DNA from: an uncultured Chloroflexia bacterium
GTDB lineage: Bacteria; Chloroflexota; Dehalococcoidia; DSTF01; JALHUB01
Reading direction: 5' to 3'
DNA: 64,000 nt
NCBI GenBank assembly: GCA_963726245.1
Contig: CAVSBT010000043.1
Coordinates: forward strand, 1 to 64,000
The position numbers and the translations under genes were made by a program. Every line of letters begins with the position of its first letter. The first letter of the stretch is position 1. Below the pieces are notes generated by a model that saw only the letters and a list, made by a program, of their open reading frames with translations, did no database searches and had not been told where the DNA came from. Of the stretch, positions 2,386-32,931 are shown in pieces.

Positions 2386-2654
2386 TTCAGTAGAGAGGGA
2401 CATCCTTGCTAGAGTTGGCGTTAGCTTCTCGCCGCAGTCGACTCGTCGGCCGCATCACAGGCCGATCGAGCCAACGTGCTTGCCACCGTGACTTGGCTGC
2501 CAACGAGGTGTAGGCCGCCTGCTTCCAGTTGGGGTGTGGCAAGCCGTGACCGACGGGCAGCCTGGTCCCCGGGCCCCAGCCCCTATTGATAGCGCCGGCG
2601 ACTGAAGGCAACGTCATTCGCACGGCCGGATCGTACCACCGTCGGGTGGCAGTA

Positions 2655-2713
2655 CCTGGGCGGAGGGCAGCGACCTCATGCGGCGCTACCACGACGAAGA
2701 GTGGGGCGTGCCG
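2655..2713 (+). repeat. 59-bp copy of the tag 5' region (direct repeat with 3519-3577)
   Basis: 57/59 identical; both differences are synonymous in the tag frame. Confidence 0.95.
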
Positions 2714-3486: not shown

Positions 3487-3499
3487 CGAGCGGCCGAGA

Positions 3500-4067: not shown

Positions 4068-4195
4068 CCGGCCTCTGTTGCGAAGAGAGTTGGGACAGGA
4101 ATCGTCCCCGAAGCGTGCGGGGACGGGGATGATCCGACTGGGCCTGGTCCGTGGGCCAGGCCGAGATGATGAGGCTTGGGTCTGGAGCGCGACCG

Positions 4196-4639
4196 CTAGG
4201 CCGCGCTCTCGTCCCTGAACATCAAGAGGCCGCCCACAGCAAGCGCCGCCGCCGAGAGGATGCCCAGGTACAGGCCATACGTCGTGAAGTCGTGATTGCC
4301 CAGGTACTTGATCAACAGAAACACCAGGGCAAGCACGCCGGCGCCCGCGTGAATCTTGGGCCAGGTGATGCCTCCGATGTTGTCCGGAACAGCCACCGTC
4401 CCCAGGTTCTTCACGACGATGACGGCCGCCATCGCCAGACCGATGAGAATCGCCAGGATGGACCAGAACGACCCGAAGTCACTCCACGCGTTCCTACTGG
4501 CGCTGACGCTGAAGCCCCCATAGCTGGCGCTAGCGCTGTACCAGGGCAGGAACCCGACTATGAACAGCACCACACCCGCTGGAAGGATAATCTTCTCCCC
4601 TATGCTCAGGGCGTTGAACTTCTCAATCCATTTCTCCAC
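4196..4639 (-). CDS. hypothetical 4-TM membrane protein
   Basis: GGAGGAGG RBS, four hydrophobic helices, FLPWY motif. Confidence 0.8.
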   Translation of the reverse strand: MEKWIEKFNALSIGEKIILPAGVVLFIVGFLPWYSASASYGGFSVSASRNAWSDFGSFWSILAILIGLAMAAVIVVKNLGTVAVPDNIGGITWPKIHAGAGVLALVFLLIKYLGNHDFTTYGLYLGILSAAALAVGGLLMFRDESAA

Positions 4640-4733
4640 GCGGACCTCCTCCTGAAGTCAGCAAGATCACCCCGAATCCGGCGTCACCAGTTGACGGCGG
4701 CGGGGTACCTCCGGCCATCGCTTGGCTGTGACA

Positions 4734-4762
4734 AAAGTAGTGATTGCCGGCCAAGATGTCAA
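4734..4762 (-). promoter_or_regulatory. sigma70 promoter
   Basis: Minus strand TTGACA-17 nt-TACTTT upstream of the 4196-4639 gene. Confidence 0.65.
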
Positions 4763-4802
4763 TTGGCAATTTCCTCAATATTGCGCCGGAGTGACGGTCG
4801 GC

Positions 4803-6137
4803 CTACCGCCGCACCCGCACCGTGTCCGCGTTCACGGTGTCCGGGAGGCGGTAGCCCCGGAAGCTGAGCATGGCTATGAAGACGGCCACGCCGGCCACCG
4901 GCCCGACCAGCCGTATACCCCAAGGGTCATCGGCGGTGCCGCCCAGCAGCAGGAGCAGCGCCAGGATGGCCGGGAAAAGCGCCGACGCCAGCTTCTCCAG
5001 GGTGGCGTGGATGCCGTAGTACATGGCCTCCCGCCGCATACCCGTGCGCAGCTCGTCGTAGTCGATGATGTCGGCCATGAGGGCGTTGGGGAAGGTGAAC
5101 ACCGCCGCCATGGGCACGCCCAGGAACGGGACGAAAAGGAAGGCCTGCGCCACCTTGGGGATGACCGGGATGAAACCCATGAAGAACATCGTCGGCAGGT
5201 AGAGGGCGCCCAGGAGCATGGCCGTCCCGTACACCCACGCCTTCCCCTTCCGAAGCGACAGCCGGTAGACGAAGGGCAGCGCCGCCAGCACCACGACGAT
5301 GGCCGAGGCGGTGAGGGCTGAGACGTAGAACCCTTCGTGCTGCTGGCCCAGCACCTGCGTCACGTAGAAGGGGAGCGCCGCCAGGAGCAGCGACACCCCC
5401 ATGTTGAAGAAGACGTGAGTGGGGAGGAAGTAGAGGAACTGGTCGTTGGTGAAGGTGGTGCGGAGGGCCTGTCGCAGGTCCAGGCGGGCGGGCGGTTGCT
5501 GCACGCGCACCCGTCGCCAGGCGCCTCCCAGCGCCAGGTAGCGTGAGCCCAGGGCCAGAACCGCCATCATCGCAGCCATCGCCTGAAAGCCCCACAGCTC
5601 CTTGATGACGCCGCTGCCTACCAGGGCAATGGCCGCCCCGACGGTGCCGAAGAAGACCTGCCAGGTCACGACGCCCACCCGGTCCTTCGAGGTGACGGCG
5701 ATCTCAGGCAGGAGCGACTCGAAGGGGCCGCCGGAGAGAGTGCTGAACAGGTAGAAGCCCTGCAGCATCGCGAACAGGTAGACGGCGTTGGCGATGCTCT
5801 CGTGACCGTTGGGAGGCGTCCAGAGAAGGGCGAAGAACAGGACCCAGAAAGGCGTGGCGAAGAGGACAAACGGGATGCGCCGGCCCCATCGGCTGGTGGT
5901 GCGGTCGCTCCAGTAGCCGATGAGAGGGTCATCGAGCGACTCGAGGATGCGGGTCACGGTGAGGATGACGCCGACGGCGACGACGGAGACGCGTCGGGCG
6001 ACGTCCGTTTCCCCCTGTGGCGGCGCGAAGAAGAAGATGAGCCAGAGGTCCGTCGTGCGGGAGATGACGTTGCCCGCGAAGGAGCCCGAGGCGTAGAGGA
6101 GCATGTTGCGGCGGGGTAGTTCAGCAGCGGCGGCCAT
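4803..6137 (-). CDS. MFS transporter, GPH/MelB family
   Basis: DDPLIGYWSDRTTSRWGRRIPF and ADIIDYDELRTGMRREAMYYG; about 12 TM helices. Confidence 0.9.
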   Translation of the reverse strand: MAAAAELPRRNMLLYASGSFAGNVISRTTDLWLIFFFAPPQGETDVARRVSVVAVGVILTVTRILESLDDPLIGYWSDRTTSRWGRRIPFVLFATPFWVLFFALLWTPPNGHESIANAVYLFAMLQGFYLFSTLSGGPFESLLPEIAVTSKDRVGVVTWQVFFGTVGAAIALVGSGVIKELWGFQAMAAMMAVLALGSRYLALGGAWRRVRVQQPPARLDLRQALRTTFTNDQFLYFLPTHVFFNMGVSLLLAALPFYVTQVLGQQHEGFYVSALTASAIVVVLAALPFVYRLSLRKGKAWVYGTAMLLGALYLPTMFFMGFIPVIPKVAQAFLFVPFLGVPMAAVFTFPNALMADIIDYDELRTGMRREAMYYGIHATLEKLASALFPAILALLLLLGGTADDPWGIRLVGPVAGVAVFIAMLSFRGYRLPDTVNADTVRVRR

Positions 6138-6322
6138 GTCGCACTCCCGCGCCAGAGTAGCAAATCGGCGGGTCGCCGACGAGAGGCGCCGGGAAGGCCG
6201 CCCGGCGCCGCCGCCAGACCGGGCCGCCCGACCCGGAGCAGGGGCTATGCTTCAGCGGGTGCCGAGTTCATAATGGATAGTGGTAGCCGGTTGACCAGTC
6301 ATGGTTGGGGAGGAGGAAGGCT

Positions 6323-7340
6323 ATGCCCTGGGAAGACCTAGAGCCGATCTTCCGTCCGAAGACCGTCCACATGGGCGTGATGAGGGTGGACCCGGAGAGG
6401 TGCACGCGGCCTCGCGGCTCGAAGTGCCAGTACTGCTGGGACAACTGCCCGTTTCGAGCCTGGGAGCTGCAGGAGGGCGAGGCCCCGAGCCTGAAGGAAG
6501 GGTACGAGTGCTTTAGCTGCTACAACTGCATGGTGGCCTGCCCGACGGAAGGCCATCTCCGTCGTCGAGGCCTACCACGTCGATGAGGGCTTCTACAAGA
6601 CGGAGCCGCATCCTCTGCCGGCCAGGACGCCGCTCGAGCCCATGGACGCCGAGGGCAACCCCGACCGGTGGAACGAGATCGAGAAGGCCGTGCTCTACCG
6701 GCGCAGCGTCCGCAACTTCAAGGAGAAGCCGGTGCCCGAGACGCTCATTCGGCGCGTGTTGGAGGCGGGACGCTTCGCGCCCAGCGCCGGCAACTGTCAG
6801 CCCTGGCGGTTCATCGTCGTCACCGACCGGGCCCTGATCCACGAGATGGACGAAGCCATCTACGCCGGCCTGTCTATGCTCTACAACCTGTACAAGAACG
6901 ACGAAATGGTGAAGAACCTTGCCGTCGCCTACGAGGCCGACCCAACGCCGGGGGTCTACGACCCTCGCATCGTCCTGGGAGGGCTGGGCAGCGTCGCCAG
7001 GAGGAGCGGGCCCGTGTTCCTCAACTCTTCGGCGGTGATCCTCATCGCCGGCGACGAGCGCGCCATCAGCGGCCCCGAGATCAACATTGGCATCTGCGGA
7101 CAGAACATGAACCTCGTGGCCAACTCCCTGGGCATAAAGTCCTGCTGGGTCGGCTTCAGCCAGGTGATCAACCTCCTGCCCCCTCTGAAGGAGAAGCTGG
7201 GGATAGAGTATCCCTGGAAGGTCGTCAGTTCCCTCGTTCTGGGATACCCCCGGTTCAAGCAGGAGGGCATCGTGCCCCGCGAGTTCCGGCCCGTCGCCTG
7301 GTTCCGCGACGGAGCCGGCGGCCCCGAGGTGGAGGAGTAG
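6323..7340 (+). CDS. 4Fe-4S ferredoxin-nitroreductase fusion (frameshift near 6550)
   Basis: C..CQYCWDNCP and CFSCYNCMVACP, then RRSVRNF..APSAGNCQPWRF..GIKSCWVG. Confidence 0.9.
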
Positions 7341-7341
7341 G

Positions 7342-8016
7342 CTATCCCCCTTCTATCCGGCCGTCCAGCATCTTGACGAGGCGATCGGCGCTGCCCGCGA
7401 TACCGAGATCGTGGGTGACCATGATGATGGTGAGGCCATGCTCATGATGGATGCCCTCCAGGGCCTCCATCACGTTACGGCCGGCCTTCGAGTCGAGGTT
7501 GCCGGTCGGTTCGTCGGCGAGCAGGATGGGCGGGTCGTTGCTCATAGACCGGGCGATGGCCACGCGCTGGCGCTCGCCGCCCGACAGCTCCGGAGGCCGC
7601 CGCCGGGCCTTGTCCGCCAGCCCCACCAGCTCGAGGAGTTGGAGCGCTCTCTGGCGTCGCTCCCGCATGCCCCGGCCCGTCTCGTACATGGGCACCTCCA
7701 CGTTCTCGACCGCCGTCAGGGTGGGAAGCAGGTTGTGGAGCTGGAAGACCAGCCCCACGGTGCGGGCGCGGTAGCGGCTCAGGTCATGGCGGCTGGTGAT
7801 CTCCTCGCCCAGGACCACGATGCGGCCGGAGTCGGGTCGCTCCAGGGCGGCGATGAGGTGGAGTAGGGTCGACTTGCCGCATCCCGAGGGACCCGTGACG
7901 GCCACGAACTCCCCCTGCGCCACGCTGAGGGTTGCGCCGTCCACAGCCCGAGTCCTCCCATCATCGAAGGTCTTCACCAGGTCGATGACTTCAACCGCGG
8001 GCGGCTTCTCACTCAT
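7342..8016 (-). CDS. ABC transporter ATP-binding protein (LolD/MacB-like)
   Basis: GPSGCGKS, LSGGERQR, LLADEPTGNLD. Confidence 0.95.
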   Translation of the reverse strand: MSEKPPAVEVIDLVKTFDDGRTRAVDGATLSVAQGEFVAVTGPSGCGKSTLLHLIAALERPDSGRIVVLGEEITSRHDLSRYRARTVGLVFQLHNLLPTLTAVENVEVPMYETGRGMRERRQRALQLLELVGLADKARRRPPELSGGERQRVAIARSMSNDPPILLADEPTGNLDSKAGRNVMEALEGIHHEHGLTIIMVTHDLGIAGSADRLVKMLDGRIEGG

Positions 8017-9130
8017 GGCGGATAGCCTCGGCCGGCAAGAGGCGCGCCGCTCGATAAGCGGGGTAGATCGCTCCCAGCACGGCCACGCCCGCGCCGACCA
8101 GGATGCCCCGTATGAAGACCCCCGGCGTGTACTCGGGCGAGAGGAAGGCGCGGATTGCGGGCAGGAGGACGATGAAGTGGGTCAGCAAGACCGCCAGCGC
8201 TGACCCGAGCACGGCGGCGATCAAGCAGAGCAGAAGCGCCTCCCCCACTATCATCTGCAGGATGCGGCGCGTCCGCCAGCCCACGGCCCGCAGGATGCCG
8301 ATCTCCCGCGTCCTCTCGAAGACGGCCATGACCATCGTGTTCATGACGGCGATGCCGCCGATGAAGACGGCCAGGAGGGTGATGCCCAGGTTGATGGCAT
8401 CGAAGATCTTGAGGCCCTGGTCCACGTTTCCGGAGACGTCCGCTCAGGCCGCGCAGCGTGGCCAGGTCCGGGTGGTCGGCCTCGATGCGCGCCGTAAGAG
8501 CCGCCACGTCGGTGCCGGGCTTCACCTTCACGTAGAGGAGAGTGTAGAGGCCCTCCTTGCGCTCGGACGCCCACACGGTGGAGATGGGGAGCACGCCGCC
8601 GCCGTCCAGGTAGACCGTGCCCGTCCGGTAGATACCGACCACGTTCAGAGTTTGGTCTCGAATCTCCACCTGTTCTCCCACCCGGGCGCTCCAGTTGGCT
8701 TGGCCGCCTCGGTGCCGAGCATGATCTCGTCCCGGGTGCCCGGCGCGAGCCGCTGTCCCTCGACGATGGGTAGGTCGAAGAAGGCCAGGTCATTGGGATC
8801 GATGCCCACCTGAGCGAAGTAGGGGTTGGAGCCCACCTTGCTGAAGGCCAGGAGAACCCCGCTGGCGTGTGCAACCTCGGGGTAGTTCTCGACCTTCTGC
8901 AGGTCGGCGGCCGTAAGGGTGCTGAAGGTGAGGTCGGAGCTACCGTTGCGCCCTATGGCGAAATCGCTACCGCCGGCCCGCAGTAGTTCTAAGGTCGTAG
9001 TCTTGGTGCTGCTGGTGATGATGCCCATAGCCACCACGGCCGTGATCCCGATGCTGATGCCCAGGACCGTGAGGCCGGTGCGGATCTTCTGGCGGATCAG
9101 GTTTCGGAAGATGAGCAGGGCGAAAGGCAT
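8009..9130 (-). CDS. ABC transporter permease, FtsX/MacB family (frameshifts)
   Basis: RNLIRQKIRTGLTVLGISIG and MNTMVMAVFERTREIGILRAVGW. Confidence 0.9.
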
Positions 9131-9290
9131 GGCGGCACCCCCGGGGTTAGACATCGGTCGGCGCCCATTCTAGCTCCTGGGGTGCCATGTTCGTCCAGTA
9201 GGGATTTCCCTTGCGACGTGGTGTGGCGCTTAACACAAGGCGGCTGTGCCCAGGCGGTTGGCCCTACCCGAGGGCCACGTACAATCACCG

Positions 9291-9635
9291 TCAGCCGCAG
9301 CCTAGAACCAGGAGGAAGTTCTCTAATCCCCAGGTGTGCTCCTCGTTGTCGTCGTATTGGAGGTCCCGCTCAACCGTCAGAGTGAAATAGCCGGGAGCCG
9401 AAACCTCGAACGTCACCGGCCCGGGGGCGGGCTGGGGGCTGGTAACGCCGTCGAAGCTGTAGAGGCCGCCCTGTCCAGTGGTCACTGTGCCGGCGTTGCC
9501 CACGGAATCGTGAAAGGTGATGGTCGCCCCTTCTATGGGCTGGCCGGTTACGGCGTCGGTGACCTGTCCCGAGATACAGCCTGCCAGCGCCAGAACAAGG
9601 GCGCAGTAGGCAAGTGCCGCGATGCTTCTGAGCAT
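9291..9635 (-). CDS. lipoprotein with carboxypeptidase regulatory-like domain
   Basis: LAGC lipobox; ISGQVTDAVTGQPIEGATI..G.YSF..VSAPGY. Confidence 0.8.
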   Translation of the reverse strand: MLRSIAALAYCALVLALAGCISGQVTDAVTGQPIEGATITFHDSVGNAGTVTTGQGGLYSFDGVTSPQPAPGPVTFEVSAPGYFTLTVERDLQYDDNEEHTWGLENFLLVLGCG

Positions 9636-9772
9636 TCGCCTTCCCCTCAGCTATTGATGACCTACAGTCTTCCACGTTGGGCTGACTGCAGGCGCCGCGA
9701 ACACTGATTCAGGTACCGAGAACGTACCGATGCCTGTCTGTAGCGTCAAGCGCAGTCGCACTCCGGCGCCGC

Positions 9773-9819
9773 TTGACAAGGCTGCGGGCCCAAAGTAGCA
9801 TATTAATGAAACATGATGC
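9773..9819 (+). promoter_or_regulatory. sigma70 promoter with probable ArsR operator
   Basis: TTGACA-17 nt-TAGCAT followed by an AT-rich imperfect inverted repeat ATATTAATGAAACATGATG. Confidence 0.65.
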
Positions 9820-10214
9820 AAGGAGCCCACCCGCCTATGTCTAGTCGTCTCATCGAAGCCAGGCCGGCTTCACGGGTCTCCACCGCGGACTTGGGGGCGC
9901 TCCTGCGAGCGCTGGGCGATGAGACCCGCCTCCGCATCTTTGCTCTGCTGACCAAGGCTGAGCTGTGCGTCTGCGAGATCGAGGACATGCTGGACCTCTC
10001 CCAGAGTCTGGTTTCCAATCACCTGGCGGTGCTGCGACGCGCTGGCCTGGTCGAGAGGCGGCGGGATGCTGAGGACGGGCGCTGGATCTTCTACCGCGCT
10101 AACCCGATGGCGGCCTCTGCGCTCCGCGAACGGCTGGGCGCGCTGCTCGACGTGCAGACGGCGCCGGGCGACCGGCGGCGGGCAGAGCAGGTGTGCCGGA
10201 TTCGGGGAGGATAG
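9813..10214 (+). CDS. arsR: ArsR/SmtB transcriptional repressor
   Basis: ALGDETRLRI, ELCVCE, SQSLVSNHLAVLRRAGLV. Confidence 0.92.
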   Translation: MMQGAHPPMSSRLIEARPASRVSTADLGALLRALGDETRLRIFALLTKAELCVCEIEDMLDLSQSLVSNHLAVLRRAGLVERRRDAEDGRWIFYRANPMAASALRERLGALLDVQTAPGDRRRAEQVCRIRGG

Positions 10215-10251
10215 GCTTTTTTCTTGGCGCATTGCATCACCACGAGATGAT

Positions 10252-11322
10252 ATGACCGCCGTGCAGCCACGCGATACCGTCGAGCTGGCGCCTGCCTCGG
10301 CGCAGCGAACCAGAAACGGGCTGGTGCTGGCCCTGGTCGTGGCCGCCCTCGCCTGGGTGGGAGCTTACCTTGCTCTCCGCCCCGTCGCCGACGCCTTGAC
10401 GTACGACATGCTGCGTCTGTCGGGTGAGAGCCACCTTGGCAGCGCTGTCAACTTCTTCCTCTACGACACCCCCAAGGTGCTCCTCCTGCTTACGGGCATC
10501 GTCTTCCTGATGGGAATCATCCGCACATTCTTCTCCCCAGAGCGGACAAGGGCGATGCTCGGCGGTCGCAGGGAGGGAGTAGGCAACGTCGCCGCGGCGG
10601 GCCTCGGGATCGTGACGCCATTCTGCTCCTGTTCGGCCGTGCCGCTGTTCATCGGCTTTGTGGAGGCCGGCGTGCCTCTGGGGGTCACCTTCTCGTTCCT
10701 CATCTCAGCGCCGATGGTGAACGAGGTCGCCATCGTGCTCCTGTTCGGGCTCTTCGGGTGGAAGACGGCGGCGCTGTACGTCGGACTCGGGCTGGCGATA
10801 GCTATCGGCGCGGGCTGGGTTATTGGACGCCTGCGGATGGAGCGTTACGTTGAGCCCTTCGTGTACGAGATCGCCGTCGGGCGGCTCGACTCCGGGGAGA
10901 GCCTGACATGGTCCGACCGGGCCGCGAGGGGCATCCAGGCCATCCGTGACATAGTTGGCCGCGTCTGGCCGTTCGTTGTGGCCGGCATTGCAGTCGGTGC
11001 GGCCATCCACGGCTACGTGCCGCAGGACACGATGGCCGGAATCATGGGCAAGGGAGCCTGGTGGAGCGTCCCGGCTGCCGTAGTCATGGGCGTGCCGATG
11101 TACTCGAACGCCGCGGGCGTGCTGCCCGTAATCGAGGCCCTGATTGACAAAGGGGCCGCGTTGGGGACGGCGCTCGCTTTCATGATGAGTGTGGTAGCCC
11201 TGTCATTCCCGGAGATGATCATCCTTCGCCGGGTCCTGAAGTGGCAACTGATAGCCGTCTTCATCGCTGTGGTCGCGGGCGGCATCACGGCTGTTGGCTT
11301 CGTCTTCAATCTGGTCTTCTAG
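10252..11322 (+). CDS. ArsP/DUF318-type permease
   Basis: TPFCSCSAVP, FLISAPMVNEV, GVPMYSNA, ALSFPE. Confidence 0.9.
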   Translation: MTAVQPRDTVELAPASAQRTRNGLVLALVVAALAWVGAYLALRPVADALTYDMLRLSGESHLGSAVNFFLYDTPKVLLLLTGIVFLMGIIRTFFSPERTRAMLGGRREGVGNVAAAGLGIVTPFCSCSAVPLFIGFVEAGVPLGVTFSFLISAPMVNEVAIVLLFGLFGWKTAALYVGLGLAIAIGAGWVIGRLRMERYVEPFVYEIAVGRLDSGESLTWSDRAARGIQAIRDIVGRVWPFVVAGIAVGAAIHGYVPQDTMAGIMGKGAWWSVPAAVVMGVPMYSNAAGVLPVIEALIDKGAALGTALAFMMSVVALSFPEMIILRRVLKWQLIAVFIAVVAGGITAVGFVFNLVF

Positions 11323-11332
11323 GAGGAACAAG

Positions 11333-11578
11333 ATGCTAAAGATCGAGGTGCTGGGGTCCGGTTGCGCCAACTGCCAGCGACTTGAGATGCTGGCGCGCGA
11401 GGCCGTGGCGAAGCTGGGCATCGAGGCGGAGGTAGAGCACGTTACGGACATCAAGCAGATCATGGCACGCGGCGTCATGGCGACGCCCGGGCTCGCCGTG
11501 AACGGCAGAGTCGTCTCCAAAGGCCGGCTACCATCCCTCGCCGAGGTCGAGGGCCTGATCAAGGGTGCCGCCCTATAG
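11333..11578 (+). CDS. small redox-active disulfide (thioredoxin-like) protein
   Basis: [23 protein letters not shown]; AGGAGG RBS. Confidence 0.9.
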
Positions 11579-11600
11579 CAGGCGGTCTCGGAGTACACCC

Positions 11601-12038
11601 GTGAAGCAGAGGGTCCTCTTCATCTGCACCCACAACTCGGCCCGCAGCCAGATGGCGGAGGCGTACCTGAACCGTCTCGGCGTCGGCCGCTTCGAGGCCC
11701 AGAGCGCCGGCACCGAGCCCGGCACCCTCAATTCCCTGGCCGTCCAGGTCATGGCTGAGGAGGGCATCGACATCAGCAGCCAGCGGGCCAAGTCCGTAGA
11801 CGACTTCGTGCAAGAGGCCTTCGACTACGTCATCACGGTCTGCGACGACGCCAACGAGAGCTGCCCGGTATTCCCAAATGCTCGTAATCGCCTGCACTGG
11901 AGCTTCCCCGACCCCTCGCGGGCGGAAGGAACGCGGAAAGAGCGCCTTGCCACTTTCCGGGCCGTGCGGGACGCCATCAGGGCGCGGGTGGAGGAATTCT
12001 TAGCGGCGAGTGTGCGCGAAGGAGACCGATCGCCATGA
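11601..12038 (+). CDS. arsC: arsenate reductase, LMW-PTP family
   Basis: [30 protein letters not shown]. Confidence 0.92.
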
Positions 12039-13156
12039 CCATCGCTGAGGCCGCGCGACCGCGTGTCGCCGAACGTCTCTCGCTCCTGGACCGCTACCTC
12101 GCCTTCTGGATCATTCTCACCATGGCCTTCGGCGTGGCGCTGGGGAAGCTTCTCCCCAGTGTCGCTGACGCCATCAACTCCGCCAGCATCGGCACCACCT
12201 CCATCCCCATCGCCGTTGGACTCCTCTGGATGATGTACCCCGTCCTGGCCAAGGTGAGGTATGAGGAGCTGGGCAAGGTGAAAGGCGCCTGGAAGATGTT
12301 CAGCCTCTCGCTGGTCCAGAACTGGCTGGTGGGGCCCGTGATCATGTTCGCGCTGGCCTGGCTGCTCCTTCCCGACCAGCCGGAGTACCGCACGGGGCTG
12401 ATCATCGTCGGGCTGGCCCGCTGCATCGCCATGGTGCTCATCTGGAACATGCTGGCGGAGGGTGACAACGAGTATGCCGCCGTGCTGGTGGCGCTCAACT
12501 CTGTCTTCCAGGTGCTCTTCTACTCCCTCTACGCCTACTTCTTCGTCAGCGTCGCCAGCTCCTGGTTCGGCGGCGGCGAGGAGGTCCACATCAGCTTCTG
12601 GGAGGTGGCAAGGAGCGTCCTCATCTTCCTGGGCATTCCCCTGGTGGCCGGGATGATCACCCGCTACGTGGGCATCCGGCGCAAGGGGCGCGACTGGTAC
12701 GAGGGCGTCCTCATGCCCCGCCTGGGCCCGACGGCCATCGTCGGACTGCTCTTCACCATCGTGGTGATGTTCGCCCTGAAGGGCGAGTACATCCTGGACG
12801 TGCCGCTAGACGTCCTACGGATAGCGATACCGCTGCTGCTCTACTTCCTCATCATGTTCACTGTCTCGTTCCTCATGTCCTGGCGGCTACGCTTCCGCTA
12901 CCCGGAGACGGCGACTCTCTCCTTCACAGCGGCCAGCAACAACTTCGAGCTGGCCATCGCCGTGGCCATCGGCGTCTTCGGCATCGAGTCCGGGCAGGCG
13001 CTGGCGGCGGTGGTCGGGCCGCTCATCGAGGTGCCGGTGCTCATCTCGCTGGTGTACGTCGCGTTGTGGGCGCGTCGCTTCTTCTTCACCGTCGACGGTG
13101 AGGCGAAACCGCTGTCCCTCTCCAAAGCGCCGGTTTCGGTGTCGGAGGGGCCGTGA
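12035..13156 (+). CDS. acr3: arsenite efflux transporter Acr3
   Basis: [40 protein letters not shown]. Confidence 0.95.
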
Positions 13157-13311
13157 GCCTCCTCGAAGCGCTTCTCGACTCGCTCGACGGCGACGCGCGC
13201 CCGTAGCGGTCGGGAGCAGAGATAGTCACGCGCCGCGACGAGCGGCAAGTCCAGCTTCCAGCGAATACTCACAAGGGCCAGGCGAAAGCGCCCGCGCCCT
13301 CTCGGCCGGTT

Positions 13312-22006: not shown

Positions 22007-22645
22007 ATGATTACGGTGGGCCTCACCGGCGGCATCGCCAACGGCAAGTCAGAGGTAGCGGCCATGCTGGCTGAGAAGGGGGCCGCTGTCATCTACGCCG
22101 ACCAGGTCGGCCACGAGGCCTACCGCCGCGGCACCGACGAGTACCTTCAGATCGTGGCCGCGTTCGGGGCGGAGGTCATCGGCGACGACGGCGAGATAGA
22201 CCGGCGCCGGCTGGGCGAGAAGGTCTTCAACGACCCAGAGGCCCGCCAGCGCCTCCAGGCCATCGTCTGGCCCGCCATGCGTCGGATGATGGAGGAGCGG
22301 CTGGCCGTCCTCCAGCGCCAGGGCGTGCCCGTGGCCGTCCTCGAGGCCGCTGTCCTTGTCGAGGCCGACTGGCTCCCCCTCGTGGATGAGGTCTGGGTGG
22401 TCGAAGCCTCGCCGGAGGTGGCCCGCCAGCGCCTCGCCGCCTACAAGGGTCTCTCTGCGGCCGAGGCCGAGGCCCGCGTGAGTGCGCAGCTCAGCAACGA
22501 GGAGCGCCGTCGGCACGCTGACGTGGTGATCGATAACGGCGGCATACTAGAGGAGACGCGACGGCAGGTGGACCGCCTCTGGGTCGGGCTAAAGGAGAGG
22601 GCTGTGCCGGCGGCCTCCAGCAGGAGCGAAGGCGACAGTGGGTGA
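22007..22645 (+). CDS. coaE: dephospho-CoA kinase
   Basis: [28 protein letters not shown]. Confidence 0.93.
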
Positions 22646-23585
22646 CCGGATGGTGGACGAAGAAGATGTCGACGCTGGCTATCGCCAGTATGCTATCGAG
22701 GAGTACCGGGCGGTCGAGGAGCCCTTCTATGTGCCCATTCAAGATGAGATAGGGCTCTTCGAGGCCGCCTTCGAGCAGCAGATACCGGTGTTGCTCAAGG
22801 GCCCGACGGGATGCGGCAAGACGCGTTTCATCGAGCACATGGCCTGGAAGCTGCGCCGGCCCCTCACTATCATCCGCGATGCTGGCAAGCCTTCGCGCCG
22901 GACCTCGGGCCGGCGGGCCGTCGAGGGCGAGCGCGCGAAGGAGGCGCAGGGCCTTCCCCTGGTGACGGTGGCCTGCCACGAAGACCTGACGGCCAGCGAC
23001 CTTGTGGGCCGCTACCTGCTGGAGGGCGACAGCACGCGCTGGATCGACGGCCCCTTGACCCGCGCCGTCAAGGCCGGCGCCATCTGCTACCTGGATGAGG
23101 TGGTGGAGGCCCGCAAGGACACCACCGTGCTCATCCACCCTCTGACCGACCACCGGCGTATCCTTCCCATCGAGAAGCGCGGCCAGATTCTAGAGGCGCG
23201 GGACGGCTTCATCCTTGTCATCTCTTACAATCCGGGCTATCAGAGCGCCCTCAAGGACCTGAAGCACAGCACCCGCCAGCGCTTCATCGCCATCGAGTTC
23301 GGCTATCCGCCGCGGGACGTCGAGGGGCACATCATCGCCCACGAGAGCGGCGTCTCGGAGGCGGTGGCCCTTCAACTGGCGAAGCTGGGCGAGAAGGTGC
23401 GCCACCTTAAGGAGCACGGCCTCGGCGAGGGGGTGAGCACGAGGCTGCTGATCTACGCGGGCAAGCTTATCGAGAAGGGGATAACGGCGCGAAAAGCCTG
23501 CCAGGTCGCCGTGGTCTGGGCCCTTACTGACGACCCTGAGGTGCAGCGCAGCATCGAAGAGGTGGTCAGCTCGATATTCGAGTAG
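22638..23585 (+). CDS. CbbQ/NirQ/NorQ family MoxR AAA+ ATPase
   Basis: [57 protein letters not shown]. Confidence 0.93.
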
Positions 23586-24294: not shown

Positions 24295-27200
24295 ATGAAC
24301 CTCTCGGAGCATCTGGCAGAGACCGAGCAGCGCCTGGGGCGCTACGCCTCCACTCTGCCCGCCGAGTTCCGGCGCGCGGCGCGAGAGGTGACCACCCTCC
24401 TGCCCGAAGAGCAGGTCCGCCAGTGGGCGGAAGAGGGGCTGACCCTGGCAGCCCACTCCCTGCGCTCCTGGGAGGCAGCCAGCGAGTTCTTCCGCGCCAG
24501 CCCCGAGGTGCTACGGGTGCTGGGCTTCCCCCTCTTCCTGCGCTGGGCGAACCAGGGCCGCATCCTCGCCGAGCACTCATCGCTGGTGGCCGCGGCCTAC
24601 TTCCGAGCCGGCCCGGAGAGCGTGCCCCACCTGTCGGGGCCACATCTGACGCAGTGGGCCGCCCTGGGCCAGCGGCTCTACAAGAGCAACTGGAAGTCCA
24701 TCTCTCTCACCTCGACCTTCTTCTCCGCCAGCCCCGGTCTCCTGGGCCACCTCAGCTTGCCTGAGATTCGAAAGGCTGGTGTCTGTCGTTGAATCGCTGT
24801 CGGAACGCTCCTATGAGCTGGCCGCCTCCTGCCTGGACGCGGCGCCGCGCCTCTTCGGCATGCTGGACAAGAAGGACCGCGCCTCGTTCCTCGACTTCGC
24901 GGCGGCGATCGCCCAGGCCAGTTGGGCTGACGCCCGCCTCTACTTCGAGAGGGGCCACTCCTCGCTGGCGCTCATCGAGCCCGAGTGCCGGCCCCGCTTC
25001 CTCGAGCTGTCGGCGCGGGTCGCCCGCAGCGCCGGCCGCCAGGCCTACGCCTTCTTCGCCGACGCCGCCACCGCCCTGGGCGGCGTCGACCAGAGGGCGC
25101 ACTCTCACCTCATCTCGCTGGCCGAAGAGCTGGCCGTGGGATCGCCGCCGGCCGCGATGGAGTTCCTGAAGAGCGCTCCGGAGGTGCTCAGACGCATCCC
25201 CCTGGAGGACCTGGCCCGCTGGCACTCGGCCGGGCACCACATCCTGGAGCAGACCCAGGAGGGCGGCGAGGCCTACTTCCGGCTGGAGTCCGGCAAGGGC
25301 GAAGAGGTCCTGCAGGCTCTTTCGCCGCGCGTGGACCTCTCGCGGGTGAGCGGGATACTGCATCTCTACTGCCAGGCCCTCACCGGCGTCGACGTGGCCA
25401 TTCATCCCTCTACGGCGCTGGTGGAGAAGGGCATCGGCTGGGTCTCGGAGGCCAGCCCGTCGACGGAGGGGCGGGCGATCTACCTGCCGGAGGCCGTGGA
25501 GGAGCACGCGGAGAAGAGCGAGAACTTCTCGGTCTTCAAGGTCTACGCCACACATCAGGCGGCGCACCTGGAGTTCGGTAGCTTCCTCTTCAGCTTCAAG
25601 CGTCGCGGCGAAGTCTATCCGGCGCGCCGCCGGCGTCGCGAGACCGAGCTCCGGCGCCAGGGGCTCCTGCGCCGCGAGGGCAAGCCTCTCACCGACATGC
25701 AGCGCTTCTTCGACCTCTTCCCCGACCGGCGCCTCGCCCTCGACATCTTCACCGTCGTCGAGGACGCCCGCGTCGACTTCATGGTGCGCGAGGAGTACGG
25801 CGGCATCCGGGCGGCCTGGCGTCGGATGCAGCTCCGTGAGGCGGACGACCGGCCCGAGGTCACGTTCCTGCCCCTGCGTCAGGCCCTCCTCGAGAACCTG
25901 GTGCGGGTCAGCCTGGACTCCGGCGATCTCCTGGTCTGGCCGCGGCCGCTCCGCGGGTACCTGGCGACGGCGGTCAGTCTTCTGCGCTCCGTGCAGCGCC
26001 CGGAAGCACTGGTGGAGGATGCGGCCGAGGCTACCCTTCTCCTGCACGACCTGGTGATGAGGCTGCCCAACGTGGGGGCGGAGGAGCTGGGCCTCGATTG
26101 GGAGGTCATGACCGAGGAGTCGCTGGAGCTGATGCTGGTGCCGCCCGGCGCCACGCCCGGCCGCGCCCCCGACTTCGGCGATCTGCCGGCGCTCCCTCAG
26201 GGCGCCGACCAGCCGTACGAGAGCCCCCAGCCTGTGGACTTCCGCGGCGACTTCAAGCCGGAGCTGGTCCAGCTCCTGATGCGCCTCCGCGACGACCAGA
26301 CGGCGGACACCGGTCCGCTTTCGCCTCTCACGCCCGACCAGCTCAAGGAGCTGCTGGAGAGGAGCGCCGAGCTGAGCATCGGTATCTGGGCCGAGGGTGA
26401 CCTGGCCTCCACGATCGGTCTCTTCCTCACAAATCTCGAGAAGGAGGCCGGCACGCCCATAAGCGACCAGAAGATCCCTTTGAAGGACGGCCAGCCCGTC
26501 TTGGACGCCGGCGAGGAGGAGGAGCTGCCGCAGGACGTGAAGTCCTTCTTCTACGACGAGTGGGACTTCCGCGCCTCTGACTACCGGCCTAACTGGTGCC
26601 GCGTCCAGGAGCGCGTCCTGGAGGAGGGTAGCGAAGACTTCTTCGAGGAGACGATGAAGCGGCACGCCGCCCTCGCCGAGGAGACCCGCAAGCAGTTCGA
26701 GATGCTGCGCCCCGAGCTCTTCCGCAAGATCAAGCACCTCTACGACGGCGAGGACTTCGACCTGGACCTGGTCATCGAACACCTGGTGGAGAAGCGGGCC
26801 GGCCACGCCCTGTCCGACAAGGTGTACTGGCGCCGCAACAAGGTGGAGCGCGACGTAGCCGTGGCCTTCCTCCTGGACATGAGCGCCTCCACCGACGAGG
26901 AGATCGAGAAGCGCAAGAAGCAGCGCCCCGACGATGAATTCAACGACGACCCCCGGAACTATTTCTCGTGGCTGGCTCAGCGGCGCGCTCAGGCCGCGCT
27001 CGACCCTCCCCAGCGCATCATCGACCTGGAGAAGGAGAGCACCGTCCTCCTCATCCGTGCCCTGGAGACCATCGGCGATAGCTACGGCATCTACGGTTTC
27101 TCAGGCTACGGCCGCGACAACGTGGAGTTCTACGTCCTCAAGGACCTGGAGGAGCCGTTCGACGAGCACGTGCGGCGTCGCATCGACAAGGTGAGCCCAA

Positions 27201-27538
27201 TCCGCAGCACGCGCATGGGGCCGGCCATCCGGCACGCCATCGCCAAGCTCGACGCCCACGATGCGAGGGTGAAGATCCTCTTCCTCGTCTCCGACGGCCG
27301 GCCCCAGGACCACGGCTACGGCCGCGACCGCACGGAGAAGGAGTACGCCATCCACGACACGCACAAGGCGCTGATAGAGGCGAAGCGCAAGGGCATCGTG
27401 CCCTTCTGCCTGACCGTGGACAAGGAGGGCCACGAGTACCTGGGCCAGATGTGCGAGGACGTGGACTACGAAATCCTGGGCGACATCGAGGCCCTCCCCA
27501 GCCGCCTCCCCACGCTGTACAGAAGGCTGACGGTGTAG
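24295..27538 (+). CDS. CbbO/NorD-like VWA protein with N-terminal helical repeats (about 1080 aa; frameshift near 24770)
   Basis: HQAAHLEFG, VEDARVD, YDEWD, MIDAS LLDMSAST, TRMGPAIRHA, LVSDGRPQD. Confidence 0.9.
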
Positions 27539-27581
27539 AGGACGGGGCCATCCGGGGTCATCGCCTCTCGGAGGCAAGCGA

Positions 27582-28292
27582 GTGAACGCCCTGCTCGTGC
27601 GTATCGCCGCTGATAGTAGCGAGGTCGGCGGCTTATGGAATGGGCCGGTCGACAGCCGGTCGTGGGAGTTCGTATATCTTCCCATCCCCGAAGGTGAGTG
27701 TGTCCACGCTGGTTTGGAGAAGCCATACGCTGCTGTGGCGCCTGCACTCATGAGGCTGGGTGTCAGCCTGCCGGCTCACCTTCGCGACAGGCACATGCAC
27801 CTGGACCCCGACTTCACTCACCTCACATATGGTGATGTGGGCCAGCGGGGGAAGCAGATACGCGCCAACCTGGGCGCAGGCGACCGGATCGTATTCTACG
27901 CTGGACTCGCGGACGTGCGCGGGGCGGCCGAATTAGTTTACGCTATTATCGGTGTGTTTGTGGTCGACGAGATTCGTCCTGCCACAGATATAGCCTTGTT
28001 GGACCGGGATATCAATGCCCATTCCCGGCGTATCCTCGCGCCTGGCGCCGAGGACATAGTCGTTTGCGGCCAACCTGGGGTGTCCGGGCGCCTGAAGCGT
28101 TGCCTGCCGTTTGGCGAGTACCGTGATGGAGCCTACCGCGTACGGCGAGAATTGCTGGAAGAGTGGGGAGGGCTGTCGGTAAAGGACGGATACGTGCAGA
28201 GGAGCGTGAGGCTTCCGCGGTTTCTCGACCCGATCCGCTTTCTGCGCTGGCTGGAGAGGCAGGAGCCGGCCCTGATTCAGTCAAACAACTGA
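27582..28292 (+). CDS. Nmad3-like (nucleotide modification associated domain 3) protein
   Basis: GP..FVYLPIPE, HLDPDF..TYGD, GDRIVFYAGL, NAH motifs. Confidence 0.75.
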   Translation: MNALLVRIAADSSEVGGLWNGPVDSRSWEFVYLPIPEGECVHAGLEKPYAAVAPALMRLGVSLPAHLRDRHMHLDPDFTHLTYGDVGQRGKQIRANLGAGDRIVFYAGLADVRGAAELVYAIIGVFVVDEIRPATDIALLDRDINAHSRRILAPGAEDIVVCGQPGVSGRLKRCLPFGEYRDGAYRVRRELLEEWGGLSVKDGYVQRSVRLPRFLDPIRFLRWLERQEPALIQSNN

Positions 28293-28301
28293 GGGTGCGC
28301 A

Positions 28302-28951
28302 ATGCCGAAGATCTACTTCTACAAGCTGACCTGCGACAACAACGGTGCCCCTTGCGTGCACGAGGGTTTGCTTTCGCTGGCCATCTGCAAGCCGATGATT
28401 CGCGGGCCCGCCCAGCCGGAGGATCTGATATTCGGGTTTGCCGCCAAGTCGTTGCGTCGGGATAACAGGCTTCTATACGTTGCCCGGATAACGGACAAAG
28501 TTCTCGACGGTGGCTACTACGTGCAGAAGCAGTTCGCGGTCCGCGACGACTGTATCTACAGAGCGACGCGAAGGCCAGTTCATGCGGCGGAACGACGCGC
28601 GCCCCGGTCTCCACGATCGTCCCGACGAATCTCGTCCGTGACCTGGGCAAGCACCCCCACTACCCGAGGGCAAACGTCCTCTTGAGCAGAGATTTCCGGT
28701 ATTTCGGCGCCAATGGGAGCGCCGATTACAAGGCTCGATTTCCGCGGCTGAAGAGGGCGGTCGAGGCGCTGGGCCGAGGGCACCGCGTGGTTCGGCCCGA
28801 TGATGCCCGCTACAACGACCTGATGGCATTGAAGCGGCAGGTCTGGAAGGACATTCATCAGATGGTGGCAGGCCCGCCAACAAGCACGCCGGGTGGTGGT
28901 GACATTCGTACACCGCAGCTGAGAATTTGCGCCGTCCTCGATGACCACTAG
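28302..28951 (+). CDS. Nmad2-like (nucleotide modification associated domain 2) protein (frameshift near 28570-28610)
   Basis: YFYKLTCDNNGAPC..LSLAICKPMIR..DLIFG, DCIY, VLLSRDFRYFG. Confidence 0.75.
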
Positions 28952-28972
28952 AAGGTGCCACCGCTGCTGGAC

Positions 28973-29002
28973 GAGCGAGCCGAGGCTCTTGCCCCGGCTC
29001 GC
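28973..29002. terminator. hairpin between convergent genes
   Basis: AGCGAGCCGAGGC-TCTT-GCCCCGGCTCGCT. Confidence 0.5.
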
Positions 29003-29041
29003 TATGCTCTTTGCCTATGCCCTATGTTCTACGGTCGGTTC

Positions 29042-30479
29042 TCAGTAAACCGGCTGCCCTACGTGGATGTCGCTGGCATTCGCGTCGGTGATCTCGACGT
29101 GCATCGTGATGTGCGCGTCTGGGCCGCCGGCCTGCACGGGGAGCCCGAACGTATCGGCCGCAGCCTGCGCGTCGGCCGTGATGTCCATGTCGAGGGCCAG
29201 AGGCCAGCCTCCGTCCTGTGCCACCCACACGTCGAAGGTGTCGATCGTCATGCCCTTGAGCTCGGGCGGCAGGAAGCCGACGGACTGGAGAGCCCCGGCG
29301 ACGTCGGCCAGCGAGTACTTGATCGCGTCCACACCGTTCACCGTGTCGGGCTGGCCGTTGAGCAGGCCGGGATCCTGCAGGAAGTTGAAGTCCTCCCAGA
29401 AGGCCGGCGAGCCAGGGCAGAGAGACAGGTCCTGCACCACGTCGGGGTCATCGGCGGTGGTGGCCTGGAATCCCTCGCCCGTATCGAGCCAGGCGTCGTC
29501 GCCAATCACCACCAGGTTGTCGCTGCCCACTGCCGCGCCGGCAAGGGAGCCGCTGACCGTGCAGTCGAGCCGGTCCGGCGCCTCGAACTGACCCTCCGAT
29601 GTGAGAACCAGACTGCTCCCGACTTCCACGGCCATCTCGGCGGTGAACCGGAAGCTGTCCAGAACGTCGGAAGGCGACACGGCGGTGCTCTCCTCCGGCG
29701 TTGCTTCGGACGTGCGCGTGGCCTTCGGTTTGGAGGTGGACGCCGGGGTCGCTTTCTTGGAGGCGGGCGCCGCCGTCGCCTCTGGCGCCTTCACCTCGCC
29801 TCGCAGCACCGCCAGGATGCGCTCGTCGAGCTTCTGGGCGAGGGCTGTCGCCTCGTCGCGCACGTCTTCGTCGCTGGACGACTGGACGTAGGCGGTGCCA
29901 AGCAGACGCCCTTCCCGAAATGCCACGAGCGTCTGGGTAAGGGTCATCTCCTGGTCGCCCTTGACGGTCAGCGGCATGGCCATCCCAACAGCCTCGTCGC
30001 CGACGTCTTTGACGTCGAAGGTCGTTCCCGTCCTCAACCGTTACGTTCTCCTTGGTCTGGCCGACTGCTCGTTGCCAATCAGCCACCTTGTCTTTGAGGT
30101 CGCCGGAGGCGCCGTCGGCATCTCCGTACAGGTCCAGTGCGGTGCCGACGCCGAAGGTGGCCCCCTCTTCTTTCAGGAGCGCGTCTAGAGCGGTGTAGGA
30201 CTGGTCGTAGCCTTTGTCCCGACCAAAGCTCCCCACGTCCTGTGCTTCGTCCTCTGTGTCGAAGGCATCGTTAATCGTTTTCTCGTTGCTTTGCATCCCC
30301 GACGTGTCGTCCAGTTCGAAGTCGGCGTATTGCGACCCGAACTCCGACTGCGGCAGGACCATGAGGCTCAGTTCGTCATCCGTGATGTCACGTTTCGTCG
30401 GATCGGACGAGCCGCCGCCTCCACAGGCGACAGCCAGGGCAAGGGTCAGGGCCACCAGAACCGTGAACGAAAGTCGCAT
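29042..30479 (-). CDS. two-domain acidic lipoprotein, C-terminal domain LppX/LprAFG-like (frameshift near 30030)
   Basis: AVAC lipobox, P/A/T-rich linker, LDSFRF..GQFEAPD..IGDDAW..DVWV. Confidence 0.7.
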
Positions 30480-30489: not shown

Positions 30490-31606
30490 TTAGTCGTGGC
30501 CGACGTCTCCTGTGTAATACTCGAACACTACCTGTGATAGTTTAGCAATTGGCTTCGTCTCGTATTCTTTGTCTGAGAGGACGGCGATGACGTAGGTGTC
30601 GCCTGGCGCACCTGCCGCCGGCAGGCAGGTACACGATGCCGGCGTCGTGCGTGGCGTTCGTCCAGTTGCCTGTCTTGTGGGCGACCAGCGTCCCTTCCGG
30701 AACGCCCTCCCGCAGTCCGTTGTCCAGCTCCTCGCTGGACAGGAGGTTCACCATCTCCTGGCTGGCCCCGGCGTCCACGGCCTGGCCCCGCGCTATCATC
30801 TCCATGAGAAGGGCCATGTCGGCGGCGGTGGCGGGAAGGTCGTCGGACAGGAGGCGGGTCGTGGTCAGGCCAAGGGCGGCCATCGAACGGTTGATGTTGG
30901 CGGCTCCGACGCGGTCCTGGAGGAGGACGGCGCTCACGTTGTCGCTGATCGACATCATGTAGCCGAGGGCCTCGCCGATGGTCAGCGTCTGGCAAACCCC
31001 TACAGGCAGGGTGCCCAGGTCGAAGCCAGCGTAGTAGGGGGTAACCAGCAGCGGCTCGTCGAAGCTGAGGAGGCCCAGGGCTCGCTGGTGGAAGACCTCG
31101 TACATAACCGTGACCTTGAAGAGAGAGGCGGCGTAGAAGACCTTGTCCGGGTTGATGAGGGCGCCTCGACCGTCCTTGAGGCTCTTGACGACGACGCCGT
31201 AGGAATCCACGTCAGCCCCCAAGGCATCCCGCAGCCGCGCCTCCAGGGTGGTGTCCTCCTGGAGGGGCAGGGGCTCGTATTGGGAGGGCGTTGGTACCGG
31301 GCTTGGGCTGACGATGCGCTCGCTGGGCTCGACAGGGGTGCCCTCGAGGGCGGGCCCCTCGGGGGTGGGCTGGTAGCAGGAGGGCATCTCGGCTGGTGAG
31401 GGGGCGGGCTTCACGGTGGCGGGGGGCGTGCCTGGGGTCGGCCGCACGACGGTCTGCCCCGCCTGGCCGGTGGTCTGGCCGGTTCCCTCCGCCGCACGCG
31501 TGCCCGCCTCCGGCGTGGGTGTGCCCTTCTCTTCGACGGGCACACCGCATGCGGCCAGGAGCAGCGCCAGGCCGAGGGTGGCGACCAGAAAGGGGGCCAT
31601 TCTCAT
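30490..31606 (-). CDS. class A beta-lactamase-like serine hydrolase lipoprotein (frameshift near 30620)
   Basis: LAAC lipobox, AASLFK (SxxK), SDN, HKTG; tail YVIAVLSD..VFEYY in the shifted frame. Confidence 0.88.
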
Positions 31607-32842
31607 TGCTTCTGGTCCACCAGCACGCGTCTGCAGCAGGGCAAGCGCCGTCGTCACGGCCCGCCGCTTGACGGCCTCTCGGCCCTGGGGGAAGACGTAG
31701 CTCGTGGTCCGGGGCGGCCCTTCGCCCAGGGCCACGGCGATGTGGACGGTGCCGACCGGCTTCTCCTCCTGTGGGTCGGGGCCCGCCACCCCCGTGACGC
31801 CGATGCCGACGTCAGCGCCCAGCCGCTCGCGGGCGGCGTTGGCCATCGATTGGGCGCACTCGGCGCTGATGACGCCGTGCTCGGCGATGACCTGCGGGTC
31901 CACGCCCCAGGCGATCTTCATCTCCGTGGCGTAGGAGACCAGCCCGCCTTTGTAGTAGTCGGAGCTGCCGGGGGCGTCGGTGATCGTACTGGCCAGGAGG
32001 CCGCCGGTGCACGACTCCATGGTGGCCAGCGTGAGGCCGCGTTCGCGCAGCATGGCGCCCGCGGCGCCCTCCAGTGTGTCGCCGTCGGCGCCCCAGACGG
32101 CGCGGCCCAGGATGCGCCGGGCCTCCTCTTCGACAGGCTCGATGAGGCGGCGGGCCTCGTCGGCGCTGTCCGCCTTGGCGGCGATGCGCAGTTGGATGCC
32201 GTCGGCGCGGGCGTAGACGCCGATCGAGGGGTTGCTGGACTTGAGAAGGGGGCTGACCATCTCGTCGAGCGCGGCTTCGGGCAGGCCGGTGGTCTTCAAG
32301 GTGCGGACGACGAGCACAGCGCCGGGGCGGCGCCGCTCCAGCTCGGGGGCCACCTCGGCCTCCCACATGAGGTGCATCTCCGTGGGCGGGCCGGGCATGG
32401 CGACGATGATGTGCTTGTCGCGCTCCACCCACCAGCCGGGCGCCGTGCCGCGCGGGTTGGGGATGGCCCGCGCCGAAGGGATGAGGGCCGCCTGCTTGAG
32501 GTTGCGATCCGGCATCGGCATGCGACGGCGGGCGAAGAGCTCCCGCAGCCATCGCTCGAGCTCCGGGTCGATGACGAGCTTCTCGCCGAGCACCTGGGCG
32601 ATGGCCTCCCGCGTCAGGTCGTCTTCCGTGGGGCCGAGGCCGCCGGTGGCGAGGACCAGGTCGGAGCGCTCCCAGGCCCGCCCGATGACCTCCACCAGCC
32701 GCCCCAGGTTGTCGCCGACCACCGATGTATAGTAGAGGTCGATGCCCAGCGCGGGCAGGCGGGAGGCGATGTACTGGGTGTTGGTGTCCAGGATCTCGCC
32801 CAGCAGGATCTCGGTGCCGATGGAGATGATCTCAGCCCTCAT
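31603..32842 (-). CDS. cinA: competence/damage-inducible protein A (NMN deamidase fusion)
   Basis: EIISIGTEILLGEILDTN, GGLGPTEDDLT, ESCTGG, GVTGVAGP. Confidence 0.95.
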
Positions 32843-32931
32843 GTCGAAGGGGAGCATAGGGCTGGACAGAGGGGCGAGTCAAGGAAGGGGCATCGTGGGC
32901 TCAAGCGTGCCAATGAGAGGAGGCGATTCAA

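Follow-up and report, generated by a model that had tools for sequence, protein, structure and literature searches.

The locus

This analysis concerns two adjacent genes, encoding Nmad3- and Nmad2-family proteins, in an uncultured Chloroflexia bacterium that the GTDB lineage places in the Chloroflexota class Dehalococcoidia. The window is the whole 64,000-nucleotide (nt) stretch that was analyzed, positions 1 to 64,000 of the forward strand of contig CAVSBT010000043.1 (C43; assembly GCA_963726245.1). Its source is a metagenome-assembled genome (MAG) of 2.68 Mb in 46 contigs that is 82.8% complete with 6.3% contamination. The pair lies on the plus strand at positions 27582 to 28951, and its neighbours are a CbbO-like VWA gene on one side and a lipoprotein gene on the other. 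GC content is 0.60 to 0.63 across positions 27500 to 28999 and 0.65 to 0.72 upstream, so the lower GC that an earlier note on this DNA had described is real.

That note had also placed a convergent hairpin behind the pair. It is present as an inverted repeat (28974 to 29003, without strand) with arms of 13 nt and a loop of 4 nt, in the space where Nmad2 and the minus-strand lipoprotein gene converge. RNA folding of the 90-nt intergenic RNA that holds it gave -36.3 kcal/mol with a z score of -2.35. The hairpin is probably a bidirectional terminator. A simple scan for terminators did not pick it up, and the promoter and terminator scans found nothing above chance.

The Nmad3 gene is intact. It spans positions 27582 to 28292 on the plus strand and encodes 236 amino acids (aa) from a GTG start. 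A GGAGG Shine-Dalgarno-like site, read from the sequence, is located on the same strand at 27569 to 27573, 8 nt before this start. The protein matches Pfam family PF18754 with an E value of 7.4e-21 and 75.3 bits (gathering cutoff, 27). The match covers residues 3 to 183 and profile positions 2 to 198 of 247, leaving the C-terminal 50 residues outside. Nmad3 can be aligned end to end with 23 homologues, and 48 columns of that alignment are invariant. These include HMHLDPDF, Y83 and D85, N145-A146-H147, S168-G169-R170, and Q206-R207-S208.

The second gene begins with an ATG at position 28302, 9 nt past the Nmad3 stop. The frame from this start matches the Pfam family Nmad2 (PF18753) with an E value of 1.5e-17 and 64.2 bits (cutoff, 26.1). 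Both family identities, assigned in the earlier note from motifs, thus passed a check with Pfam hidden Markov models. The PF18753 match spans only profile positions 1 to 82 of 200, and tblastn with homologues shows the remainder in two other frames. Intact homologues are 207 to 225 aa long, and one from a closely related contig (L048) is a single frame of 210 aa. The one continuous frame of approximately 200 to 225 aa that homologues have is absent from the window, where two +1 shifts divide the gene.

The three parts of Nmad2 can be followed on the plus strand. Segment 1 (28302 to 28559; residues 1 to 86) is in the first frame and is supported by PF18753 and by homologue tblastn. It is followed by an extra A at 28560, which is absent from related contigs L047 and L048 in a DNA alignment. 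Segment 2 (28561 to 28626) has 22 codons in the second frame, and its translation fits the middle of the homologues. A second extra base, one A of the GAAT at 28627 to 28630 (approximately position 28628), is also absent from L047 and L048. Segment 3 (28631 to 28951) is in the third frame and carries the C-terminal part, residues approximately 105 to 208 by homologue tblastn, and the stop. The frame read on from 28302 ends at 28685 after an out-of-frame arginine-rich tail. Near the end of the gene, extra runs of 1, 2, 1, and 2 nt relative to L048, at 28903 to 28920, shift the conserved C-H-R-x-x-S-C tail out of register.

Two tightly linked genes had been described here, and the 9-nt spacing and the Nmad3 open reading frame (ORF) stand; gene 2 as a single ORF does not, since it is frameshifted in the assembly. 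The listed motifs PIPE, HLDPDF, TYGD, GDRIVF, NAH, LAICKPMIR, DCIY, and LSRDFRYFG are all present, but the one given as D.G.AP reads DNNGAP. The Nmad2 motifs D.IY and LS..F.YFG fall in different frames. Invariant residues among Nmad2 proteins are AP, CKP..R, D..Y, H, and R.

Frame breaks in Nmad2

Four metagenome contigs (L047, L048, L049, and L051) have 87 to 89% DNA identity to the window and share its gene order. Isolated insertions of one base at 24767, 28560, 28628, 30023, and 31633 set the window apart from these relatives. Less than 7 kb holds all five, and the genes that they affect number four or five. The base at 24767 cuts a 1,084-aa VWA gene into ORFs of 165 aa (24295 to 24792) and 919 aa (24779 to 27538); L047 and L051 each have one gene there. 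The base at 30023 cuts the lipoprotein-like gene (29042 to 30479, minus strand) into overlapping ORFs of 343 and 331 aa. This gene is unbroken, in one frame, in L051 and in a genome of the same genus (G001, locus L043). The fifth base, at 31633, is at the junction of the CinA and hydrolase genes and is absent from L051.

The Nmad2 frame breaks are likely to be consensus errors of the assembly, and the gene copy is then intact in nature. Such errors best explain the five one-base insertions, which are all on the window's side. Lone extra bases of the same kind break the conserved VWA gene and the lipoprotein gene as well. A 171-nt contig of a public sequencing run (X1) agrees with the window at every position from 28408 to 28579 except base 28560, which it lacks. 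A second X1 contig, which covers 28802 to 28949, lacks the small extra runs at 28903 to 28920 and has two other mismatches. The ratio of nonsynonymous to synonymous substitution rates (dN/dS) between the window and its relatives stays under 1 for all three Nmad2 segments taken singly, and it is 0.23 to 0.33 in segment 2.

The alternative is that the window cassette is a decaying remnant, its Nmad2 frameshifts being true mutations and the pair having ceased to function. We consider this unlikely, and some observations do count for it and against consensus errors. Gene 2 has two independent +1 shifts and a scrambled tail. Overall Nmad2 dN/dS is 0.32 to 0.46, above the 0.17 to 0.19 of Nmad3 (against L047, L048, and L049). 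L051, with flanks 87 to 89% identical to those of the window, has a divergent Nmad3 at this site but no longer any Nmad2. Nmad3 is split in three further loci (L030, L031, and L032), and split or partial copies were also found in L009 and L058. The read-derived contigs leave 27571 to 27798 and 28597 to 28767 uncovered, which includes the second frameshift site. No public run contained over 16% of the words sampled from positions 27400 to 29100.

The insertions bear on other genes of this genome. Because the assembly carries single-base insertions, genes that look like pseudogenes in it call for caution. A 771-aa ORF on the minus strand (30542 to 32857) joins CinA to a Beta-lactamase2-type lipoprotein and has a signal peptide in the middle of the protein. 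This apparent fusion may be an artefact because the extra base at 31633 falls at its junction.

The pair across genomes

Loci were collected from species genomes (27 loci) and from 80 of 440 metagenome hits. Thirteen loci were removed as copies because their Nmad3 DNA was identical, and one more because its context was the same, leaving 93 distinct loci. In 71 of the 93, an Nmad2 gene begins no more than 120 nt downstream of Nmad3. The contig ends too early in 7 loci, and 15 have no Nmad2 at this position. The gap between the genes was measurable in 67 loci; it is 7 to 11 nt in 51 of these, and its most frequent value, 9 nt, is also that of the window.

The family is broadly distributed. A profile of Nmad3 gave 945 matches at E values of 1e-3 or lower among 1.84 billion representative proteins. 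Homologues with 47 to 69% identity were found in MAGs that carry the labels of more than 10 phyla, and the Nmad3 of L047 and L048 is 85% identical to that of the window. By tblastn, Nmad3 had no match in 50,697 phage records, and among plasmids only four records matched, at approximately 30% identity. A search of the ESM Atlas with Nmad3 returned only unnamed clusters with scores of 0.86 or lower.

Fused forms occur. Among the best 150 Nmad3 matches, 11 representatives were at least 330 aa long. One of these (P0047) is a full fusion of Nmad3 and Nmad2, and one (P0003) has a partial Nmad2 ahead of Nmad3. Four (P0021, P0026, P0064, and P0093) join Nmad3 to another family, c17, and the remaining five have no second domain that could be named. 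In 3 of the 15 loci without Nmad2, c17 is an alternative partner that directly follows Nmad3 and takes the place of Nmad2 (L021:8695-9369, L027:8743-9378, and L028:6061-6699). These c17 proteins are 212 to 225 aa long, have no Pfam match, and end in a basic tail containing cysteine.

Nmad3-Nmad2 is a conserved, horizontally mobile two-gene unit that is sometimes fused and that lies in variable accessory and defence regions. The earlier note had proposed that the pair works on its own, and a self-contained unit is borne out by its adjacency in 71 of 93 loci, by neighbours that are mostly unique to their locus, and by the fused forms.

Some loci depart from the usual arrangement. Nmad3 without a detectable Nmad2 was found at the same chromosomal site as the window pair in L051 (4204 to 4917) and on another contig of a genome from the same order, G025 (L044:5656-6363, minus strand). 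These two Nmad3 proteins are each approximately 70% identical to that of the window. A second, divergent Nmad2-family gene was found upstream of Nmad3 in L024 (7404 to 7982) and L063 (2584 to 3186). In L024 it directly precedes Nmad3, reversing the usual order.

Neighbour genes

Up to three ORFs were taken from each side of each locus, giving 289 neighbours. By BLAST, 238 of the 289 are singletons. The only recurrent neighbour families are type I restriction-modification (RM) subunits, a recurrent partner that the earlier note had missed. A search with probes found type I RM genes in 14 of the 93 loci and in 9 of the 27 loci that have at least 3 kb on both sides. In seven loci, hsdM and hsdS genes lie upstream and an hsdR gene lies downstream of the pair on the same strand. 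HsdM is a DNA methylase. The window pair is not located between hsd genes of one operon.

PADLOC gave a similar picture. Among the upstream neighbours, 9 of 142 matched MTase_I and 7 of 142 matched Specificity_I. Six of 118 downstream neighbours matched REase_I. Zorya ZacABC, SoFic, PDC-S05, S11, S15, and S23 each had a single match near the pair. Genes for McrB and McrC adjoin the pair in L014 and L099. Mrr and YhcG nucleases are near it in L008, and GmrSD_N and DarT are near it in L019. The defence role suggested in the earlier note is therefore backed by context in relatives, namely type I RM, McrBC, Mrr, GmrSD, DarT, Zorya, and SoFic. One locus is from a cultured strain, Bradyrhizobium australiense WSM 1791 (L014). 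Its positions 1742 to 13179 hold a NACHT-like/GT4-conflict protein of 1,648 aa, Nmad3-Nmad2, McrB (MrcB_N plus AAA_5), and McrC.

The position inside restriction operons suggests that the pair could be an accessory of type I RM which lets HsdMSR sense modified DNA, the window copy being a partnerless orphan. Support comes from the seven loci in which same-strand hsdM/S and hsdR genes enclose the pair and from the type I RM genes being the only recurrent neighbours. An analogous prediction, computational only, is made by Bell et al. (PMC7641849), where stand-alone EVE and ASCH proteins would let restriction sense modified DNA. We nevertheless regard an accessory role as rather improbable. The probes detected no type I RM genes in 18 of the 27 well-flanked loci. 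No HSDR_N match (HsdR) was found in the window's genome, which is 82.8% complete. Genes for Fic, YhcG, and Mrr occur in the same operons. The gap between hsdS and hsdR is also a known landing site of unrelated defence genes, such as PrrC, according to Payne et al. 2024 (10.1101/2024.01.29.577857).

The Nmad Pfam families reportedly originate from the computational work of Iyer et al. in 2013. Their names fit another explanation, that the pair belongs to a pathway for hypermodification of self DNA or nucleotides and that the window copy is the leftover of a larger cluster. Genes of such pathways do occur near the pair: a 5-hydroxymethyldeoxyuridine (5-hmdU) DNA kinase (HMUDK_hel), MazG_C, and GT4-conflict. 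In the DefensePredictor report (PMC13092281), an "NMAD" domain of unspecified family is placed in one validated and one predicted system, and in the validated system it is beside a 5-hmdU kinase and thymidylate synthase. The three enzymes are rare near the window's subfamily, however, at 1 of 142 upstream neighbours each, and none ranked in the 25 commonest of the 93 families found downstream. No base-modifying enzyme is beside the pair in the window or in L047, L048, L049, or L051. The pair is also conserved by itself, and we consider a role in hypermodification very unlikely.

These results bear on two points of the earlier note. By Pfam, no modifying enzyme or recognizable nuclease adjoins the pair, as it had said. 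Its proposed survey of enzyme-free pairs shows that the pair is not always accompanied by modification enzymes. Modification loci that contain Nmad proteins share the same Pfam families, but the subfamily of the window normally lacks those enzymes.

The chromosomal site

The pair's spot is a lineage-specific variable accessory site, since genomes of the same family hold other cargo there or none. Nmad2 was found in none of the 17 genomes of that family that were searched. Their usual arrangement is the VWA gene followed 0.1 to 2.2 kb on by the CinA/hydrolase genes. Between the VWA and hydrolase genes, G004 has two minus-strand ORFs of no known family (L045:1058-2448). One, of 215 aa, contains an R-x-x-I-A-H stretch, which we take to recall HEPN motifs. 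The corresponding site of G007 (L046:983-3038) holds an IS200-like Y1 transposase and an uncharacterized 477-aa ORF. In the same-genus genome G001, the two contigs break off to the left and right of the pair's location, at 27210 and 29165 of the window. No tRNA genes were found in 15000 to 40000. No flanking direct repeats were found around the pair, and insertion boundaries are not definable.

The VWA gene was considered as a partner of the pair, together with an AAA gene of CbbQ/NorQ type at 22638 to 23585. This was rejected. They accompany the pair only in the window's own lineage (L047 to L051), and they are thus lineage-specific company. To judge from their sequences, the AAA and VWA genes look like a CbbQ/CbbO-type pair, and a cyclophilin-like gene lies between them.

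Protein models and fold

AlphaFold2 modelled Nmad3 with a predicted local distance difference test score (pLDDT) of 95.4 and a predicted template modelling score of 0.92. For Nmad2, the protein of L022 was modelled with a pLDDT of 89.6. The best Foldseek matches of both models in the PDB are PUA-like folds: McrB-N with 5-methylcytosine DNA, the EVE protein THYN1, ASCH, PH1033, YTH, and VcaM4I. In a viral library the best matches are ASCH, EVE, and DUF3850. The top PUA-like match of Nmad3 has an E value of 3.9e-3, a probability of 0.94, and TM-scores of 0.33/0.42. That of Nmad2 has an E value of 0.1 and TM-scores of 0.38/0.51. A profile-profile comparison of Nmad3 with Nmad2 gave a match of 29 columns at 9% probability, which does not support homology between them. 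Searches of PDB sequences with both profiles gave nothing meaningful.

Both proteins would accordingly be PUA-like, of the EVE/ASCH/YTH/McrB-N type, if these similarities reflect their folds. Recognition of modified bases, as proposed in the earlier note, gains weak backing from the fold similarity, but no Foldseek match reaches an E value of 1e-3.

The fold matches also bring in a role outside defence. Some ASCH-fold enzymes work in the salvage or repair of nucleosides or RNA modifications. Nmad3 and Nmad2 could be an enzyme pair of this kind, and their best fold matches include ASCH proteins. Ordinary metabolic genes are common among the neighbours, and the many invariant polar residues may indicate catalysis. 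A patchy, horizontally transferred distribution counts against this role, as do the embedding in restriction operons and the adjoining McrBC, GmrSD, DarT, and Zorya genes. We think this explanation highly improbable.

Proposed function

Phages evade restriction through base modification, and bacteria counter with readers of those modifications. We put at an even balance the reading that the pair is an autonomous, horizontally mobile defence-island module of two PUA-like proteins; its mechanism is one that we infer. Given PUA-like folds, the module would most likely bind a modified nucleobase in nucleic acid, with both proteins acting together. At least one subunit might, speculatively, perform chemistry on the modified base, as the many invariant His, Asp, Arg, Cys, and Lys residues suggest. 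The module would serve antiphage defence either by itself or, in embedded loci, by guiding the motor-nuclease HsdR to DNA that is modified. With no HsdR found in the window's genome, the cassette, if active here, works alone or with an unlinked partner.

Several results weigh against this module reading. The fold similarities are low, with no Foldseek match at an E value of 1e-3 or lower for either model and TM-scores of 0.33 to 0.51. Neither protein matches the PUA-clan Pfam models EVE, ASCH, and YTH at E values of 0.01 or lower. By Pfam, neither contains a recognizable nuclease or other effector domain through which binding could stop a phage. PADLOC v2.0.0, including its PDC candidates, returned no family at E values of 0.01 or lower for Nmad3 or for either Nmad2 frame. 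Neither protein has a match in NCBIfam or among the sequences of solved structures. The genomic context also has two sides. The 18 well-flanked loci without detected type I RM genes and the missing HSDR_N match count here too, and the neighbours include many ordinary genes for metabolism or transport (major facilitator superfamily proteins, short-chain dehydrogenases, and ATP-binding cassette transporters). The enrichment of defence genes is inferred from base rates and not from matched random loci. Searches by names and accessions of the literature that could be searched found no studies of or experiments on Nmad2 or Nmad3.

A bolder version of the module reading is doubtful. In it, the two PUA-like proteins alone would make up a complete antiphage system, and the invariant His/Asp motifs of Nmad3 (HMHLDPDF and NAH.R) would join the Cys-Lys motif of Nmad2 (CKP.IR) in a catalytic centre of a new type. 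Its action would be to cut out or otherwise remove a hypermodified base, or to cleave DNA or RNA in which such a base occurs, and c17 would retarget the Nmad3 core. If this is true, sensing and killing are combined in one small heterodimer without a classical nuclease.

Relation to known systems

On the module reading, the pair belongs to a kind of system that is already known, reader-only PUA-like modules in restriction contexts. Bell et al. (PMC7641849) describe small PUA-like EVE and ASCH proteins without a nuclease in or beside hsdR/M/S operons. The Nmad pair resembles these in consisting of small, putatively PUA-like proteins without a recognizable nuclease, in some loci inside restriction operons. 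It differs from them in being bacterial, whereas the EVE/ASCH systems described there are mostly archaeal, in belonging to other families, and in being more often away from type I RM. The idea of a reader-only module is less new because of this computational description, and the earlier note's expectation of an undescribed system was too high.

Other likenesses are to modification-dependent restriction enzymes, whose sensors are domains of the PUA superfamily. McrB-N and the EVE-HNH protein VcaM4I (PDB entries 6p0g and 6yex), which are among the best structural matches of both models, carry their sensor fused to a GTPase or nuclease, according to the reports on them (PMC7897488 and PMC6765204). 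The Nmad pair has no recognizable effector, and its similarity to them is weak, with a best E value of 4e-3. McrBC and GmrSD genes adjoin the Nmad pair in some loci. No effector is obligatorily adjacent to the pair, and there is no conserved third gene.

The location in restriction operons has a parallel in "guilt by embedding," the occurrence of defence genes such as PrrC inside type I RM, BREX, and DISARM loci, as set out by Payne et al. 2024 (10.1101/2024.01.29.577857). The Nmad pair is likewise between hsdS and hsdR in seven relatives, but the window copy is not embedded.

Significance

The module travels between phyla and repeatedly lands between hsdS and hsdR. To our knowledge, every well-studied reader of modified bases is coupled to a nuclease or motor. 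A widespread module made only of reader-like proteins points either to unrecognized catalysis on modified bases or to a plug-in that retargets restriction machines. The comparative data give candidates that can be cloned, one of them from a cultured Bradyrhizobium, and residues to mutate.

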